DNA from: an uncultured delta proteobacterium | GTDB lineage: Bacteria > Myxococcota > Myxococcia > Myxococcales > Anaeromyxobacteraceae | Reading direction: 5' to 3' | Assembly (NCBI GenBank): GCA_963814585.1 | Contig: CAWFDF010000008.1 | Span: 128,001-192,000 of the forward strand | Length of the DNA: 64,000 bases | Part shown: one piece after another, positions 45,825 to 56,957 of the stretch | Layout: each line of letters starts with the position of its first letter | Numbering within the stretch: the first letter of the stretch is position 1 | Notes under the pieces: model-generated | Told to the model about the DNA's origin: nothing | The model's database searches: none | Seen by the model: the letters and a program-made list of their open reading frames with translations, nothing else | Translations under genes and position numbers: made by a program

Positions 45825-47216
45825 ATGATCACCGTCGAGAAGATCGGCGGCACCTCGATGTCGCACTTCGAGGACGTCATCAAGAACATCATGCTGCGGG
45901 ACCCGAAGCACGTCTTCGGCCGGGTCTACGTGGTCTCGGCCTACGCCGGGGTGACCAACCAGCTGCTCGAGCACAAGAAGACCGGCGAGCAGGGCGTGTA
46001 CGCCAGGTTCGCGGCCGGCGGCGACTACGCCGGCGCGCTGGACGCCCTCACCGGCAAGCTGAAGGAGATCAACCGGGGGCTGGCGGCGATCGGCCTGCCG
46101 CTGGCCGTGGCCGACGGCTTCATCTCGCAGCGCATGTCGGTGCTCAAGGAGTACCTGGACTCGATGCGCCACGTGCTGGCCTCGGGCTACCTGAAGCGCG
46201 AGAACGTGCTGCTGGCCGGGCGGGAGATGCTGGCCGCCATCGGCGAGGCCCACTCCGCCTTCAACAGCGTGGAGATCCTGAAGGCCAAGGGCATCCCGGC
46301 GCTCCTGCTCGACCTCTCCGGCTTCGACGACGACGAGCCGCTCACCATCGACGAGCGGATCCACGAGTCGTTCAAGGGCGTGGACCTGGCGCGCCAGGTG
46401 GTGGTGGTGACCGGCTACACCAAGGGCGTCGAGGGGATCATGCGGGAGTTCGACCGCGGCTACTCCGAGGTCACCTTCAGCAAGGTGGCGGTGGAGCTCA
46501 AGGCCGACGAGGCGGTCATCCACAAGGAGTTCCACCTCTCCTCGGCCGACCCGGAGATCGTGGGCGCCGGCAACACCGTGGTGGTCGGCAACACCAACTA
46601 CGACGTGGCCGACCAGCTGGCCGACGTGGGCATGGAGGCCATCCACCCCAAGGCCGCCAAGCCCATGGAGCTGGCCAGCATCTCCATCCGCCTCAAGAAC
46701 ACCTTCGAGCCGGACCACCCGGGCACGCTCATCACCAAGGACTACGTGGGCAAGCAGGCCCGCATCGAGGTCATCGCCGGCACGCCCAAGGTGACCATCG
46801 TCGAGATCCACGACCCCAGCATGGTGGGCACGGTGGGCTTCGACCTCGGCCTCATGCAGATCTTCCAGCGCCACGGCGTCTCGTACATCCTCAAGGCCAC
46901 CAACGCCAACTCGATCACCCACGTGGTCTGGGAGAAGTCGGCGACGCCGAGCTTCGTCGAGGAGCTGGAGAACACCTACGAGGTGGTCTCGGTGGTGCCG
47001 GCGGCGGTGGTCTGCGTCATCGGCTCCAACATCGCCATCCCCGGCGTGCTGGCGCGGGCGGCCCAGGTGCTGGCCGACGGGAAGATCAACGTCAACTGCG
47101 TGTCGCAGTCGCTGCGGCAGATCAACATGCAGTTCGTCATCGACCGGGCCGACTACAAGAAGGCCATCGCGGCGCTCAACAAGGCGCTCTGCCTGGAGCC
47201 GATCCGGGCGGCCTGA
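45825..47216 (+). CDS. Aspartate kinase (Ask_Ect-like subgroup)
   Basis: MITVEKIGGTSM, VVSA, FDRGYSEVTF, LSSADP, GMEAIHP, ACT domains; GGAGG RBS. Confidence 0.9.
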   Translation: MITVEKIGGTSMSHFEDVIKNIMLRDPKHVFGRVYVVSAYAGVTNQLLEHKKTGEQGVYARFAAGGDYAGALDALTGKLKEINRGLAAIGLPLAVADGFISQRMSVLKEYLDSMRHVLASGYLKRENVLLAGREMLAAIGEAHSAFNSVEILKAKGIPALLLDLSGFDDDEPLTIDERIHESFKGVDLARQVVVVTGYTKGVEGIMREFDRGYSEVTFSKVAVELKADEAVIHKEFHLSSADPEIVGAGNTVVVGNTNYDVADQLADVGMEAIHPKAAKPMELASISIRLKNTFEPDHPGTLITKDYVGKQARIEVIAGTPKVTIVEIHDPSMVGTVGFDLGLMQIFQRHGVSYILKATNANSITHVVWEKSATPSFVEELENTYEVVSVVPAAVVCVIGSNIAIPGVLARAAQVLADGKINVNCVSQSLRQINMQFVIDRADYKKAIAALNKALCLEPIRAA

Positions 47217-47345
47217 GCGCGGACCGGCGGCCGGGGAGACCGTGAGACGGGGCGACCGGCCGGGGGCGACCGTGCGTCCGCGGCGCGACCGGGCGATCGG
47301 TCGCCTCCCCGGGTCGTGGTGGGCGCCACCCCTACATCCATGAAT

Positions 47346-47374
47346 TTGCAGGGTGCTTTCCGAGGTGCTAGATC
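47346..47374 (+). promoter_or_regulatory. Candidate promoter of the RiPP-like operon
   Basis: TTGCAG-17 nt-TAGATC with TGn extension, upstream of the AAGGAG RBS at about 47411. Confidence 0.4.
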
Positions 47375-47424
47375 TCACTTGACGCGGCGCAAGCAGCCCG
47401 GCGCCCGGCCAAGGAGAAGCCCCG

Positions 47425-48464
47425 ATGCGCCGATCCGCCCTCCACGCACTGACCGTCACCGCGCTGATCGGCCTGGCCGCCTGCGGTGAGGCACCTCCGG
47501 TCGAGGCGACATCGGCCGATATCGCCGCGCCCGGGCCGGGACTCCAGCAGGTCTCCTTCACCGGCGTCGGCGACCCGGCGACAGGCCGGCTCCAGATCTT
47601 CATGGGACCGCAGGCGTCCATCGGCACCATCACCGAGGACAAGGACGGCAGCGCCGCCACGGTGACCGCCGACACGGCGCAGGTCTATGGCCCAACGCGG
47701 TCACCTTCATCGCCACGGGCGGCGTCGGGCTATCCGGCCGGTTGCAGCAACACGGCCGCCCTAGGCATGGTCGCCAACGTCGAGGTCTTCTCCGGCTTCA
47801 AGGAGCAGCTCCGCAACGTCTACGCCCGGATCACCAGCGTGAGCGGCGGCCAGACCTTCTGCACCAGGGCGACGCCCGGCGGCCATCGCGCCGCCCGCTC
47901 GGCACCTACTCCGGGCTCTACTTCTACCAGCCGCTCAACAGCTGGCACGTCCCCGAGCGCCATCAAGCGGTCCGGTCCAGTGGGCCCTGAACCTGCCCGA
48001 CAATGGCGCCCTTCTGGTTCAGCGGCGACGCTCTGCGCCGAGGTCATCCCGGCGCCGCCCGACCTGCGTCGCGCCGGCGGACAACCTCGTCATCCAATCT
48101 GCCACGCACAAGCCCCAGCGTCACCTTCTCCTGGACCAACGATCCGCGGGCCGACGGAGGGACCTCGGGCGAACGGCTATCGCCGTGGCGCGCCCGAGCG
48201 GCGGCGCCTACCTGACCGCTACGCAATGCGGGAGCGCCGGGACTGCTGCCGCGCCCATCGCCTTCGATCCGGAGCTCTGCCGTCGCGACGACCTACTACA
48301 CCCACGGACCCTTCAACCGGAGAACCACAAGCTACAGGGCTCGCTACGCCAGGGGATTCTGGTACCAGTGGACACTCCAGAGCGCCTTCCTCTTGCCCGG
48401 AGCGAGGACCACCCGGACTCTTGGAAGCACGTTCATGACCCGCCACTTCGCCGTCGTCCAGTAG
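47425..48464 (+). pseudogene. Lipoprotein with multiple apparent frameshifts (assembly error or decay)
   Basis: Clean N-terminus with lipobox LAAC. Coherent segments continue in alternating frames (ANVEVFSGFKEQLRNVYARITS; YSGLYFYQPL; FWFSG; PSVTFSWTND) to a probable end TRHFAVVQ-TAG at 48464. Confidence 0.55.
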
Positions 48465-48481
48465 GCCTTGGGTCAGCCCCC

Positions 48482-48659
48482 ATGAACAACTCAATCACGC
48501 TTACGACGCCTGCCCCTCCCAGCCGGCCACCCCCGCGCCGTGCCCCTACGAGTCGCCCCGCCTCACCGGCAAGCGCGTCACTCGATCGGGTGACGCTCCT
48601 CAGCAGCGCGTCTCTGCGCGCCGAGCGACCCGCGTCCTGCACATATCGGTCACCTGTAG
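48482..48659 (+). CDS. Putative lasso-type RiPP precursor peptide (reading frame disrupted)
   Basis: ATG 48482. PYESPRLTGKR (YxxPxL) reads from 48544 in one frame, SLDRVTLLS in another, and ...CAPSDP...IGHL-TAG(48659) in the third. About 55-59 codons. Confidence 0.55.
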
Positions 48660-49662
48660 TGCCGCTGAGGACCGCTCCCGCTCGCGCTCGCCGCTCGCCG
48701 CGGCCCTGCTGGCCTGCGCCGCGGATCCCGCCCCCGCCCTGCCCCTGCCCCGACGGCTACCCGGCCACCGCGACGCGCCCGGCCGGCTGCAGCCCCGGAC
48801 GTCGACTGGCTCGCCTTCGCCTTCACCAGGCCAGGGCACGCTCGACGCCGGCCGTCTTCATCGGCAAGCCGGACGGCAGCTGCGCCCAGCGCCTCACCAC
48901 CGACGCGCGCCTACTACGGCGACCCGGCCTTCTTCCCGGGCGGCAAGAAGCTGGTCTACGCCAGCACCAGGAGCGGCCTGAACCAGCTCTACGTCCGCGA
49001 CCTGGTGACCGGCGCGGAGACCCGACTCGACACCACCTACACCTTCGCGCCGCCGACCGGCCACCGCGGACACGCTGACCGCCGCCATGCCGTCGGTCTC
49101 GCCGGACGGCGCCACCATCGCCTTCGAGGGAAGCCTGGCCGCCTACCCGGGCTGGAGCGACGTCTTCACGGTTCCGGTCGTCGGGCGGCGACGTGGCGCG
49201 GGTGACGCACGATCCGGCCGCGGCCACCAGCCCCAGGTGGTCGCCTGACGGGGCGCTCCTCTACTACCTCTCCTACCAGACGGGCGCCGAGGAGCTCTTC
49301 TCGGTCCAGCCGGACGGCACCGCCGAGGTGACCCGGATCACCACCGGCTCTGCGCTCTCCAGCCGGTTCGACGTCTCCGGCGACGGCCGGCGCTGGTCTA
49401 CGCCCGCCACTCGACGACCGGCGCCGGCCCCCAGCCGACCGAGCTGGTCGCCTACGACCTCGCCACCGCGCCGGTGCGCGTCATCTCCTCGGCCAACGAG
49501 GCCGACCCGGCGGTGGACGCAGCGAACACCTCGGTGGCCGTCTCCCGCCGCAACGCCGCCAGCGGCTACGACCTCTTCCTGCTCGACTACGCCAGCGGCG
49601 CGGTGAAGCGGCAGCTCACCAGCTGCCCCGGCCAGGCCTTCGGCGCCGCCTTCGCCCGTTGA
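48659..49662 (+). pseudogene. TolB-like/PD40 beta-propeller lipoprotein with several apparent frameshifts
   Basis: Lipobox ALLAC; segments PAFFPGGKKLVYASTRSGLNQLYVRDL, PSVSPDGATIAFEG and PRWSPDGALLYY in different frames. Stop overlaps the next start. Confidence 0.7.
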
Positions 49663-50372
49663 CCGGCGCGGCCCCGCTCTTCCGGCTCCGCCAGGCCGCC
49701 CGCGGCCTGGCGCTGCGCGCCCTCCTGCCTCTCATGGTGAAGCAGCGGGCGCTCCCCGACCTGCTGGCCCGGCTCGACCTGCCGAGGGAGCCCGGCGCGC
49801 CACCGGGCGACGGCCAGCGCCGGCTGGCCGAGCGGCTCTTCCAGCCGCTCCGCTTCTGGCCCACCACCTGCCTCTACCGGGCGCTGGGGAGCTACGCCCT
49901 CCTGCGCGCCGCCGGGCAGGAGGTCCGGTTCGTCATCGGCGTCTCCAGGGCCGGCGGGGAGCTGGTGGCGCACGCCTGGCTGGAGCGCGACGGCCGGGCC
50001 ATCATCGACCGGCCCGGCCCCGGCGAGGGCTACGCGGTGGCCTACGCCTGGCCGGCCGACCCGGCTATGCTGCCGGCGCCGAGGGGGAACGCCAGCGTGC
50101 CCGGGATCAGCTGCAGCGACGACGCCGTGCTCACCGAGCTCCAGGACGGCACCGGCGTGCTGCTCCACCTCCAGACCCGCTTCTACTTCACGCTCAACCC
50201 CAGCGGCGTGCAGGCCTGGAAGCTGATCGGCGCCGGCGCCCGGGACGCCGCCGAGCTGGCGCGGCGGCTGGCCGCCGCCTTCCCGGACGCCGACCCGGTG
50301 AAGGTCCGGGCCGACGTCGACGCGCTGCTGGCCGACCTGGTGCGCGAGTCCCTGGTCGTCGTCCGGGGCTGA
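49659..50372 (+). CDS. Lasso B2-type leader peptidase (transglutaminase-like) fused to a C-terminal PqqD/RRE domain
   Basis: TCLYRAL...FVIGV...AHAWLE (B2 Cys/His motifs), then GVLLHLQTRFYFTLNPSGVQAWKLI...RADVDALLADLVRESLV (PqqD). Confidence 0.88.
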   Translation: MTGAAPLFRLRQAARGLALRALLPLMVKQRALPDLLARLDLPREPGAPPGDGQRRLAERLFQPLRFWPTTCLYRALGSYALLRAAGQEVRFVIGVSRAGGELVAHAWLERDGRAIIDRPGPGEGYAVAYAWPADPAMLPAPRGNASVPGISCSDDAVLTELQDGTGVLLHLQTRFYFTLNPSGVQAWKLIGAGARDAAELARRLAAAFPDADPVKVRADVDALLADLVRESLVVVRG

Positions 50373-50379
50373 GCCGACC

Positions 50380-51327
50380 GTGCCGGCCTTCGCGCTCCAC
50401 CACCTGACGGTCAAGACCGTCTCCGCGCTGGACGTCGATCCCGGGGCGCTGCTGCTGGCCGGCTTCCCCCCGTCCGAGGACTGGCGCCGCCCCGCGCTCA
50501 CCATCGCCTTCGAGGCGGCCACCGGGCCGCTGCCGCCGCCGCGGGGTCCGGCCTTCTTCGAGCACGGCGACGTCTCCGTCCACCTCGACGGCGGCGTGGC
50601 GGTCGTCTCCGGGCCGGGCACCCGGCTGCGGGTCTCGGAGCGTGGCGAGCGGATCGACGGCCTGCTGGTCCCGGCCGCCGCCGGCGAGCCCCGCGAGGTG
50701 GCCGAGATCGACCTGATGCTGGCGCTGACGCTGGCGCTCCGCTCGCACGGCCTGGTCCACCTGCACGCCGCCGCCACGGTGTCGCCCTCCGGCCAGGTGC
50801 TGCTCATCACCGGGACGGGCGGCGCCGGCAAGAGCACGCTGGCCGCGGCGCTGGTGGCCGCCGGCCACGGCTACCTCGGCGACGACGTGGTCCTGGTCGC
50901 GCCCGGCGGCGCCCTGCTGGCCTTCCCCCGCCCCTTCCACCTCTCCCCGGCGTCGGCGCGCGCGGTGGGCGTCGAGGCCGGCCCGACGCGTCCCCGGACC
51001 GGCAAGGGCGACCTCGACGCCGGTGCCGCCTTCCCCGGCCGCTTCCGCTGGTTCGCCCCGGCGCCCGACCTGGTGCTGATGCCGCGCGTGGCCAGCCAGC
51101 CGTCCACGGCGCTGGAGCCGTCCACCCGGGCCGAGGGGCTCGGCGCGCTCCTCTCGCTCAGCGCCTTCGCCGCCTCGGCGCTCCCCGGGGCCGCCGAGCA
51201 GCGGGCCCGGCTGGCCTCGGTGATGGACGGGGCCCGCCCGGTGAGCCTGGCGCTGGGGCGCGACCTGCTCGACGACGCCGCCAGGACGGTGGCCCGGCTC
51301 GAGGCGGCGCTGGCCCGGAAGGAGTAG
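50380..51327 (+). CDS. HPr-kinase-like P-loop kinase (RiPP-associated type)
   Basis: HLHAAA...GTGGAGKSTLA...YLGDDVV. Confidence 0.8.
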   Translation: MPAFALHHLTVKTVSALDVDPGALLLAGFPPSEDWRRPALTIAFEAATGPLPPPRGPAFFEHGDVSVHLDGGVAVVSGPGTRLRVSERGERIDGLLVPAAAGEPREVAEIDLMLALTLALRSHGLVHLHAAATVSPSGQVLLITGTGGAGKSTLAAALVAAGHGYLGDDVVLVAPGGALLAFPRPFHLSPASARAVGVEAGPTRPRTGKGDLDAGAAFPGRFRWFAPAPDLVLMPRVASQPSTALEPSTRAEGLGALLSLSAFAASALPGAAEQRARLASVMDGARPVSLALGRDLLDDAARTVARLEAALARKE

Positions 51328-51421: not shown

Positions 51422-52513
51422 CTACCCCTGCCCCGTCGCCAGCCGGATCGCCTTGCAGAGCCCGGCGAAGCGCGGGATGCGCGCCGCCTCCGCCGGCGGG
51501 TGGAACGCCGCCTCGACGTGCTCCTCCGAGAGGCGCGGCACGAAGCCGGCCGGCAGCCGCGCCACGAAGGCCTCCTCGATGCAGCCTCGCACCGGTCCCG
51601 GCGGGCGCCCCAGCGAGACCGGGTCGTAGCCGAAGCCGTGGCGGTAGCCGAGCGGCGCCACGGCCACGTCGGCCCCGGTCTCCTCGCGGAGCTCGCGGCG
51701 AGCGGTCTCGATGGGCGTCTCCCCCGGATCCATCCGCCCGGTGACGGGCTGCCAGAAGCCGCCTCGCTCCGGCGCGCGCCTGAGCAGCAGCACGCGCCCG
51801 TCGGAGGCCACCGGCACCACCGAGACGGTGCGCAGCGGGTCCGGCCCCGGCGTGAGCCGCCGCCCCAGCGCCTCGGCGGCGTGCCGGGCCAGCTGGGCCT
51901 CCACCTCGTCGACCGGCGGGGCGGCCCGGCCACGCGCCGCGAGCTCGGCCGCCAGGCTGGTGACGCCGAGCCGCGGGTCGGCGATGCCGCACGGGACGAT
52001 CGCCTGGAAGTGGGCGAGATCCGGCGAGAGGTTGAAGGCGAAGCCGTGGCTGGTGATCCAGCGGGCCAGGTGGACGCCGACCGCGCCGATCTTCCTCGTC
52101 CCCACCCAGGCGCCGCGGTGCTCCTCGTGGCGGCCCGCCACCACGCCGTGATCGGCGCAGGTCCGGATCATCGCCTCCTCCAGCGCCGCCACGTAGCGGC
52201 GCACGTCGGGCCGATCGGCGAGGTCGAGCACCGGGTACCCGACCACCTGTCCGGGGCCGTGGTAGGTGACGTCGCCGCCGCGGTCGGTCTCGTGGAGCTC
52301 GAACCCCTGCGCCTCCAGCCAGGCCGGCGCGGCGATCAGGTTGGCCCGGTCGGCGCTGCGGCCGAAGGTGAGCAGCGGCGGGTGCTCGAGCAGGAAGAGG
52401 TGGTCGGTCTCCGGCGGGGTGGCCGCCCGCAGGGCGTCGCCGGCCAGGCGCATCAGCGCCAGCCCGTCCTGGTACTCGACGCGCCCGAGCCGGTGGACCT
52501 GCAGCGCCCTCAC
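51422..52513 (-). CDS. lipB: Octanoyltransferase LipB fused to a NUDIX hydrolase domain
   Basis: LLEHPP, DRGGDVTYHGPGQ, RKIGAVG, HGFAFN, IVPCGI; then FWQPVTGRMDPGETPIETARRELREETG. GTG start overlapping the lpdA stop. Confidence 0.9.
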   Translation of the reverse strand: MRALQVHRLGRVEYQDGLALMRLAGDALRAATPPETDHLFLLEHPPLLTFGRSADRANLIAAPAWLEAQGFELHETDRGGDVTYHGPGQVVGYPVLDLADRPDVRRYVAALEEAMIRTCADHGVVAGRHEEHRGAWVGTRKIGAVGVHLARWITSHGFAFNLSPDLAHFQAIVPCGIADPRLGVTSLAAELAARGRAAPPVDEVEAQLARHAAEALGRRLTPGPDPLRTVSVVPVASDGRVLLLRRAPERGGFWQPVTGRMDPGETPIETARRELREETGADVAVAPLGYRHGFGYDPVSLGRPPGPVRGCIEEAFVARLPAGFVPRLSEEHVEAAFHPPAEAARIPRFAGLCKAIRLATGQG

Positions 52514-55633: not shown

Positions 55634-56957
55634 TCAGACCAGCCGCATGAAGAGCAGCCCCGGCTCCTCGAGGTACTTGATCACCTCGTAGCAGAAGGCC
55701 GCCGCCTCGTGGCCGTCCACCACCCGGTGATCGCTGGTGACCGAGACGTGCATCACGTCGCGGATGACGATCTGGCCGTCCCGCACCACCGGGGTCGGGC
55801 GCATCCGGTGGATGCCGAGGATGCCCACCTCGGGGTGGTTGAGCACCGGCGTGGCGAACATCCCGCCCAGGGCGCCGAGGCTGGTGATGGTGAAGGTGGA
55901 GTGGCCGTGGTCCTCGGCGCGGGCCCGGCCGGCCCTGGCGTCGGCCGAGAGCCGATCGAATCTCGCGGGCCAGGTCGAGCAGCGAGCGCGCGTCCGCGCC
56001 CCGGACCACCGGCACCAGCAGCCCCTGCTCGGTGGCCGCGGCGATGCCGATGTCCCAGTGCCTCTTGATGACGATCTCGCCGGCCTCCTCGTCGAGCTCG
56101 GCGTTGAGCTTCGGGTGGGCCTGGAGCGCCGCCACCACCGCCTTGACGACGAAGGGCAGGAAGGTGAGCTTGACGCCCTCGGCCCCGGCGCCGGCCGTCA
56201 TCCGCTCCTTCAGGCGGACCAGCTCGGTCACGTCGCACTGCTCGACGAAGGTGAAATGGGCGGCGGTCCGCTTGGAGAGCGCCATCTTCTCGGCGATCTT
56301 CCTGCGGACGCCGCGCAGCGGGATCCGCTCGTCGGTGCCGCGCGAGACCCGCGGCACGGCGCGGCGCTCCGGCTCCCGGCCGCCGCCCTCCTGGTCACCA
56401 CCACCCTGGAAGGCCTGCAGGTCCTGCTTGGTGACCCGACCGCCCTCGCCTGTCCCCGCCACCCGCTGCAGGTCGAGCTCCAGCTCCCTGGCCAGCGCCC
56501 GGACCGCCGGGGTGGCGAGCGCCCGCCTGCCCGCAGGGCGGACCGCCTCGGCCCGGGGAGCGGCCGGACGGGCGGGCGCGGAGGCGGGGGCGGGCCCGGT
56601 CGAAGCCTGGGCCGCGGCCGCCGCCGTATTCGCGGGCGCGGGCGCGGGCGCGGGCGCCGCCGGGGTCGAGGGCGAGGCCGGGGCCGCCTTCGCCTTCGCT
56701 GGCGGAGCGGCGGCCGAGTCCGACGGCTCGAGCTCGATCAACGCCGAGTGGACCCTGGCGACGTCCCCCTCCTTCCAGCAGCGGCGCAGCACCCGCCCGC
56801 GCCTCGGCGACGGGATGGTGACGGTGGCCTTGTCGGTCATCACCTCGACCAGCGGCTGGTCCTCGGCCACCTCCTCACCCTCGGTGACGAACCACCTCAC
56901 GATCTCGGCCTCGACGACCCCCTCGCCGATGTCGGGCAGCTCCAGCGTGTAGGACAT
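55634..56957 (-). CDS. 2-oxo acid dehydrogenase E2 (dihydrolipoamide acyltransferase), +1 frameshift near 55960
   Basis: Lipoyl domain EVMTDKAT, E3-binding ATPAVRALAR; catalytic TFTITSLG and DHRVVDG in a shifted frame. Removing one base gives a 440-aa protein. Confidence 0.92.

Follow-up and report, generated by a model that had tools for sequence, protein, structure and literature searches.

A conserved cyclase-less gene system with lasso-peptide-type enzymes, probably making phosphorylated peptides, and its pairing with a lipoprotein family in Anaeromyxobacteraceae

Clusters that phosphorylate peptides made on the ribosome and then modified after translation (RiPPs) are the closest described counterparts of the system examined here, which is encoded in part on a 64,000-nucleotide stretch of contig CAWFDF010000008.1 (assembly GCA_963814585.1) from an uncultured delta proteobacterium of the Anaeromyxobacteraceae; this stretch is called the window below. 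The linear polyphosphorylated peptides (LPPs) of Bacillota were described in 2026 (Popov et al., PMC13381572), and the accessible text of that account states that LPPs and paeninodins have no known role. For the phosphorylated lasso peptide of Bradymonas sediminis, encoded by the bsf cluster, the kinase BsfK phosphorylates Ser3 with the help of the RiPP recognition element, or RRE (accessible part of PMC10368454), and for pseudomycoidin the protein PsmN is needed for the addition of a hexose to phosphoserine (accessible part of PMC6993621).

An earlier note on the window had read positions 47425 to 51327 as a lasso-like operon which lacks a cyclase, is coupled to two lipoproteins and would represent an undescribed RiPP arrangement. 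The analysis reported here indicates that the operon belongs to a conserved cyclase-less system which uses lasso-peptide-type enzymes and probably makes short phosphorylated peptides, and the repeated pairing of peptide genes with lipoprotein genes suggests that the peptides help to display or tether surface proteins. Because linear phosphorylated cyclase-less RiPPs have been described as LPPs (PMC13381572), the chemistry can no longer be called undescribed; what survives of that claim is the version with a B2-type peptidase and paired lipoproteins, of which searches of the open-access literature found no account, although the supplements of PMC13381572, which lay outside the search, could list such clusters. 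What is new here is an unannotated N-terminal lipoprotein domain of about 170 residues, termed the LIPO domain, that is tied to the peptide pathway.

Co-occurrence, gene pairing and the LIPO domain

When 92 genomes of the family were surveyed, the profile of the B2-RRE protein, in which a B2-type cysteine peptidase carries a C-terminal RRE (PqqD) domain, matched 25 of them, 22 with the B2 half and 3 with the RRE only. The LIPO domain occurs in the same 25 genomes and in none of the 67 others, and a propeller lipoprotein is present in 24 of the 25 and likewise in 0 of the 67. Precursor genes were found in 24 of the 25, with one marginal match outside, a nucleotidyltransferase in 23, with one match outside, and a radical SAM enzyme in 15, with none among the 67, so that the enzyme inventory of the earlier note, which stopped at the peptidase-RRE and the kinase, was incomplete: the nucleotidyltransferase belongs to the set, and the radical SAM enzyme often does. 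The system is patchily distributed within three genera, being present in 7/12, 8/37 and 9/14 of their genomes (source genome not counted). The functional link between the pathway and the two lipoproteins which had been proposed from the window is supported both by this co-presence and by adjacency, and the proposed survey of B2-RRE neighbourhoods, once carried out, spoke for a cyclase-less RRE, B2 and kinase pathway with a conserved precursor.

The pairing extends to individual gene copies. Of 43 precursors, 38 are no more than 3.5 kb away from a LIPO gene, 45 of 56 LIPO genes have a precursor within 4.5 kb, and the copy numbers of the two are correlated across the 25 genomes, which are related to each other (Spearman 0.89). 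In one genus the LIPO genes have multiplied, up to 11, and most of the scattered copies each have a near-identical precursor at their side but no enzyme gene in the neighbourhood; these pairs join near-identical peptides to differing cargo. One locus (L015) seemed to be without a precursor, but a genome search in the same genus turned up a precursor-LIPO pair on a different contig; in the complete, single-contig genome G003 all core genes share one locus (L169). Several dispersed pairs (flanks of L255, L257 and L247-L248) adjoin genes of about 320-350 residues that resemble, by eye, AraC-type regulators. Polysaccharide genes surround L171, L174, L175, L180, L275 and the part of the system on contig C9 of the source genome. 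At L171 (9522-16334), dTDP-rhamnose genes separate the propeller gene from that for B2-RRE and follow genes for a GT4 glycosyltransferase, a WecA-like protein and a nucleotidyltransferase, which is a hint at the sugar donor.

Beyond the family, the LIPO domain was found in 7 further genomes of 401 sampled from the phylum, and three of the five outside genomes that were tested have RRE and B2 matches, kinase and precursor, with no cyclase in the fetched loci. In one locus from another family (L276, 4518-18653), B2 and RRE stand on either side of a 7TM-transglutaminase, an ATP-grasp protein and a TPR protein, all enclosed in the cluster.

The LIPO domain forms the N-terminal part that is common to the lipoproteins encoded upstream of the precursors; Pfam contains no family for it, and clustering at 50% identity yielded 517 representatives. 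In the best 150 of the matches it begins within the first 87 residues, and 100 of these have a lipobox-like motif. The C-terminal tails are diverse, 144 tails from the best 150 proteins falling into 59 clusters, and in 20 of 31 sampled proteins Pfam names them, as Ig-like, FG-GAP, RCC1, NHL, lectin, cadherin, PKD, nuclease, deacetylase or phosphoesterase; the cargo domains are large and mutually unrelated, up to 2709 residues. AlphaFold2, supplied with 127 sequences, folds the domain as an eight-stranded beta structure whose first hairpin is followed by a flexible loop (pLDDT 87.7; an earlier fold of the full lipoprotein from 4 sequences had been poor, at 52). Searches for relatives returned little: Foldseek gave no match to the model at E 0.001, the best VIA structural match is a viral envelope beta-barrel (Z 9.8, root-mean-square deviation 3.5 over 114 residues), which implies no function, a sequence search of the PDB gave one weak match (E 0.006), Atlas matches were unnamed or under 0.9, and a plasmid search gave none.

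Precursor peptides and the absence of a lasso cyclase

A pattern search returned 61 precursor matches, of which 45 distinct sequences were retained and 16, from distant B2 loci, were dropped. The 45 share a YxPPR(I/L) motif, Thr-Leu at Tyr+15 and a core of 13-24 residues; the Thr at Tyr+15 is fixed in this alignment by the search pattern, and under a looser pattern Thr-Leu/Phe stands at that position in 42 of 48 distinct matches. The cores are rich in glycine (33%), with Phe at position 1 in 30 of 45, Ser or Thr at position 2 in 37 and Gly at position 3 in 33, and in 44 of 45 a Ser or Thr lies within positions 1-3. This conserved Ser/Thr is in exact register with the phosphorylated residue of LPPs, in whose leader consensus Thr stands at Tyr+15 and the Ser that receives phosphate (Ser3 of LppA) at Tyr+18 (accessible part of PMC13381572). 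The kinase target that had been expected by analogy with paeninodin is unlikely, since no precursor of the 45 ends in Ser and most offer a Ser/Thr at core position 2 instead. The suggestion of a disulfide-bonded product could apply to a minority only, because two Cys residues are present in just 7 of the 45 cores. Three B2-RRE loci with a kinase (L110, L114 and L119) have an 8-residue core and no LIPO or propeller match, and are possibly a separate subfamily.

The lasso features that are present in the system are the RRE, the B2 Cys peptidase and the YxxPxL leader with Thr(-2); the cyclase is the feature that is missing. No cyclase-like gene was found in any of 26 family loci (some of which share a genome), and the test can be relied on because, in a positive control, 18 of 33 distant B2 loci did contain such a gene. 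The search of the whole source genome with PF00733, which the earlier note had called for, recovered three full asparagine-synthetase homologues and no lasso cyclase; all three AsnB-like genes start Met-Cys-Gly and sit in polysaccharide or carrier-protein loci, and what remains are short PP-loop matches to proteins that differ from these in length. Among the 24 other system-bearing genomes, 8 have no AsnB-like match at E 1e-15, including G091 (98% complete, 6 contigs), and the other 16 contain 26 matched loci: 20 of these begin with Met/Val-Cys-Gly, canonical lasso clusters account for 2 (both in G057), 1 is without the Cys (in G063) and 3 have unreadable starts. The cut-off of NF033535 was not relied on, because the canonical cyclases of G057 also fall below it. 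A cyclase-less RRE, B2 and kinase pathway is thus supported over a split or decayed lasso cluster, and beside the homologous B2-RRE genes the precursor family is conserved. Rhodothermales loci with the same fusion order (L021-L023) combine B2-RRE fusions with three precursors, a kinase, a nucleotidyltransferase and a cyclase, and are of the canonical lasso type.

The window locus and the source genome

The window corresponds to G000:C8:128001-192000 of an assembly of 4.34 Mb that is 91.7% complete. As had been reported, five genes lie on the plus strand between that for aspartate kinase (45825-47216) and lipB-Nudix (51422-52513, minus strand), starts overlap stops, as read directly at two sites (48659 and 49659-49662), and the operon encodes neither a cyclase nor an ABC exporter. 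The description of a five-gene operon needs qualification, because the B2-RRE and kinase genes are intact but the reading frames of the lipoprotein, precursor and propeller genes are broken in the window. The lipB product carries a fused Nudix hydrolase domain, as it does in relatives.

The operon is preceded on the plus strand by a conserved non-coding element (47330..47395), a putative promoter or operator, whose blocks are common to 7 aligned upstream regions, including those of both tandem lipoprotein genes of L016; the window operon gave no match to a sigma-70 consensus promoter and none to a terminator. The lipoprotein gene (47425..48464, plus strand, 10 apparent frameshifts) encodes a lipobox, LAAC, that can be read directly, an N-terminal LIPO domain (profile match at E 8.5e-26) and a C-terminal beta-rich domain, and its product is 58% identical to the L013 homologue over residues 1-332 of 334, with zero stops. 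The precursor gene (48482..48659, plus), whose product has a YxxPxL leader motif and a Thr-Leu junction, is broken over three frames, in which the pieces YESPRL, VTLL and IGHL are found, and aligns to the L013 precursor at 64% identity over 44 residues with 2 shifts. The propeller lipoprotein gene (48659..49662, plus) has 8 apparent frameshifts, PD40 (PF07676) matches in two of its pieces, and 76% identity to the L015 homologue over 324 residues with zero stops. It had been called TolB-like, and a PD40 propeller it is, but identity with the TolB of the Tol-Pal system was rejected: homologues score 96-126 of the 343 bits required by TIGR02800, the gene is not in a tol operon, and a separate tolB-like gene stands in the tol operon on contig C4.

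The two enzyme genes agree with their earlier assignments. The B2-RRE gene (49659..50372, plus, intact) matches PF13471 (58.5 bits), PF05402 (52 bits) and NF033537 (54.6 bits, cut-off 33), and across 10 homologues Cys71 and His105 (AHAW) are invariant and the third (Asp) position is variable. Its nearest relatives, at 62-71% identity, are labelled Anaeromyxobacteraceae, Anaeromyxobacter or uncultured delta proteobacterium; some relatives have discrete RRE copies, and the RRE of the source genome is fused. The HprK-like kinase gene (50380..51327, plus, intact) matches PF07475 (24.6 bits) and TIGR04352 (49.4 bits, E 3e-13) below both cut-offs, with His129, Gly148, Gly150, Lys151, Asp168 and Asp169 (His, Walker A and Asp-Asp motifs) invariant in 14 sequences; the same residue types are important in BsfK (accessible part of PMC10368454). 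Membership of the HPr-rel-A system (TIGR04352/TIGR04353) did not emerge, as the kinase reaches 49.4 of 200 bits and a relative's discrete RRE 21.6 of 35.

Frameshift-aware alignment to intact homologues requires 20 shifts, of which 18 are called as extra bases: 10 fall in the lipoprotein gene, 8 in that for the propeller and at least 2 in the precursor gene, whereas B2-RRE, kinase and lipB require none. The three shifted genes show no stop codon and 58-76% identity over almost their entire length. Contigs of related strains, from four DNA runs, differ little from the B2-RRE and kinase genes, mostly without gaps, and show 3-6 gaps per piece against the upstream genes, although these strains are not the source strain. 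As judged from these alignments, assembly error is the more likely cause of the frameshifts than decay. The E2 gene of a dehydrogenase complex (55637-56957, minus) has one frameshift near 55950, so that errors reach housekeeping genes too.

Further parts of the system lie elsewhere in the source genome, and the statement that an ABC exporter is lacking holds for the operon but not genome-wide. Contig C4 contains a second, intact set (L208, G000:C4:342978-347386) with a radical SAM enzyme, a propeller, a precursor and a lipoprotein that joins the LIPO domain to a metallophosphoesterase, and without RRE, B2 or kinase; in its precursor the family motif F-T-G-S-G-P sits ten residues into the core. 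On contig C9, a nucleotidyltransferase gene (49% identity to its L016 counterpart) and an MsbA-like ABC gene adjoin a polysaccharide cluster. Since the B2-RRE fusion is the only PqqD match in the genome, any processing of the two precursors has to be done by the window enzymes.

Proposed mechanism, rival explanations and known systems

We consider it likely that a linear phosphopeptide or phosphoglycopeptide is made in trans by the window enzymes. The system would then be a dispersed cyclase-less RiPP pathway of Anaeromyxobacteraceae-like bacteria in which one enzyme set serves several precursors. The RRE would bind the YxxPxL leader, the kinase would phosphorylate the Ser/Thr at core position 2, and B2 would cleave after Thr-Leu to release a Gly-rich linear core of 13-24 residues. 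The PF14907 nucleotidyltransferase (on C9 in the source genome), whose active-site motifs are conserved as are those of the kinase, could add a sugar or nucleotide to the phosphate, a radical SAM enzyme would optionally modify some cores, and export may run through the MsbA-like ABC transporter. Once outside, the peptide would act with the neighbouring LIPO lipoprotein and the propeller, its likeliest role being that of a binding partner or tether, so that variable cargo (adhesin, lectin or hydrolase) is displayed in the polysaccharide layer. That the function of the peptide is tied to the two lipoproteins in one of these ways is a reading which we favour with moderate confidence. In a stronger and more doubtful version, the phosphoglycopeptide would be a structural linker that fixes adhesin or enzyme cargo to the polysaccharide coat; it is equally tentative that this linker docks into the LIPO domain, or replaces its N-terminal hairpin, with the propeller as chaperone or receptor. 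Profile comparison does align the core to that hairpin, at P 0.028 and a probability of 1.8% for a likeness that had been picked by eye beforehand, and so provides a lead at most; a predicted complex of LIPO domain, propeller and peptide scored 0.00, which is evidence neither way.

Several observations weigh against the proposed system. The co-occurrence counts rest on profiles built from the same 92 genomes, on thresholds of our own choosing and on kin that are not independent. The ABC transporter is not specific to the system, since it occurs in 61 of the 92 genomes, 23 with the system and 38 of the 67 without it, and it was accordingly downgraded as a core gene (an MsbA-like gene is adjacent in 10 of 26 loci). 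Eleven of the 56 LIPO genes have no nearby precursor, some at contig ends, and L278 and L279 in mid-contig with only a propeller; in G332 and G389, from another family (G389 being one complete contig), a LIPO gene occurs but neither a B2-RRE match nor a neighbouring precursor was found, so the domain can occur without the pathway. In the source genome, frameshifts affect the first three genes of the operon as well as the nucleotidyltransferase on C9 (5 shifts). Finally, an Asp or Glu lies at core positions 7-9 in 25 of 45 precursors, mostly of one clade, so that sequence alone leaves a ring possible in those cores.

The last point bears on the proposal that this is a split or decayed lasso cluster whose product is cyclized in trans by an asparagine-synthetase homologue, for which the lasso-type leader and B2 also speak, as do the AsnB-like genes in 16 of 24 genomes, the canonical clusters of G057 and the homologue without N-terminal Cys in G063. 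With 20 of 45 cores lacking the acid, including the intact C4 precursor, 20 of 26 matched AsnB loci starting Met/Val-Cys-Gly, no match in 8 genomes and no cyclase in 26 loci, it is highly improbable. Much the same low probability attaches to a linear antimicrobial peptide against which the two lipoproteins would confer immunity: the distribution is patchy, as it would be for such a peptide, and RiPP clusters often carry immunity lipoproteins, but the cores are short, Gly-rich and conserved rather than diversified within genomes, and the LIPO proteins bear large, unrelated cargo domains of up to 2709 residues.

The peptide could also be a diffusible signal, a density or kin cue, with the propeller as receptor and the LIPO genes as co-transcribed outputs whose products do not contact it. 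PD40 propellers bind peptides, as is the case for TolB, the propeller is nearly always present and usually in fewer copies than the precursors, and near-identical cores recur across many copies in one genus; the inspected loci, however, have no recurring regulator or sensor kinase, and an extra precursor copy beside most LIPO genes would be needless, so that we regard a signal as unlikely. Rather improbable, finally, is a peptide that primes or carries a surface glycan in LPP-like fashion, in which case LIPO and propeller genes would be independent passengers of the cassette. LPP and paeninodin clusters sit in capsule loci (accessible part of PMC13381572), rml, WecA-like, GT4 and Wzc genes are interspersed in the present clusters, and G332 and G389 have LIPO genes without the enzymes, but independent passengers would not be expected to show exact co-presence in 25 of 92 genomes or repeated adjacency outside polysaccharide and enzyme loci.

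If the linker version is true, a modified peptide serves as a structural linker for protein sorting and not as an antibiotic or signal, and phosphopeptide clusters in capsule loci acquire a first testable function. The gene-by-gene tie to a surface lipoprotein family already supplies candidate binding partners for such peptides and a knockout phenotype to look for, defines an unannotated, confidently folded domain family and a radical SAM subfamily that is restricted to the system, and offers, in L169 of G003, a ready template for heterologous expression.

PEP-CTERM/exosortase systems and type V pili likewise use one processing machine for many surface proteins that share a module. The shared module here is instead an N-terminal lipoprotein domain together with a separately encoded RiPP, and it is the logic of the systems that is compared, not their sequences. 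Among phosphorylated RiPPs, the comparison extends to the accessible parts of the published accounts. Pseudomycoidin and paeninodin (PMC6993621) share an HprK-like kinase followed by a nucleotidyltransferase, whose Asp-x-Asp is required for hexose addition, but are cyclized and modified on a C-terminal Ser, a residue that none of the 45 precursors has. The bsf cluster (PMC10368454) shares the spacing of Tyr(-17) and Pro(-14) as well as Leu(-12) in the leader, the B2, RRE and nucleotidyltransferase proteins and a kinase that acts near the core N-terminus (Ser3); it differs in having a cyclase, a discrete RRE, Ile(-2) and a phosphosite one residue further, and no paired lipoproteins are reported in that part of its account. 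LPP clusters are closest, with no cyclase, with RRE, HprK-like kinase and NTP transferase, with an MsbA-like ABC protein whose counterpart here is not specific to the system, with the YxxP leader, Thr at Tyr+15 and Ser at Tyr+18, and with a link to polysaccharide loci; they use an SpI-like peptidase and a discrete RRE where the window has a lasso-type B2 fused to the RRE, they belong to another phylum, and the Gly-rich cores of 13-24 residues, the optional radical SAM enzyme and the dispersed precursors paired with LIPO lipoproteins and propeller set the present system apart, no such pairing being mentioned for LPPs in the accessible text of PMC13381572. The SpI-like peptidase (TIGR02228, cut-off 51.85) appears below its cut-off in two loci only, L179 (41 bits) and L178 (38.5 bits), where archaeal-type signal-peptidase-like domains are encoded in the cluster, fused to a GNAT domain (L179, 6213-7094) or to a nucleotidyltransferase (L178, 5631-7460). 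The genomes concerned, G055 and G056, have no B2 over the cut-off, and this SpI-like gene in their clusters links the family to LPPs and presents a natural swap of leader peptidase, B2 against SpI-like, inside one family.

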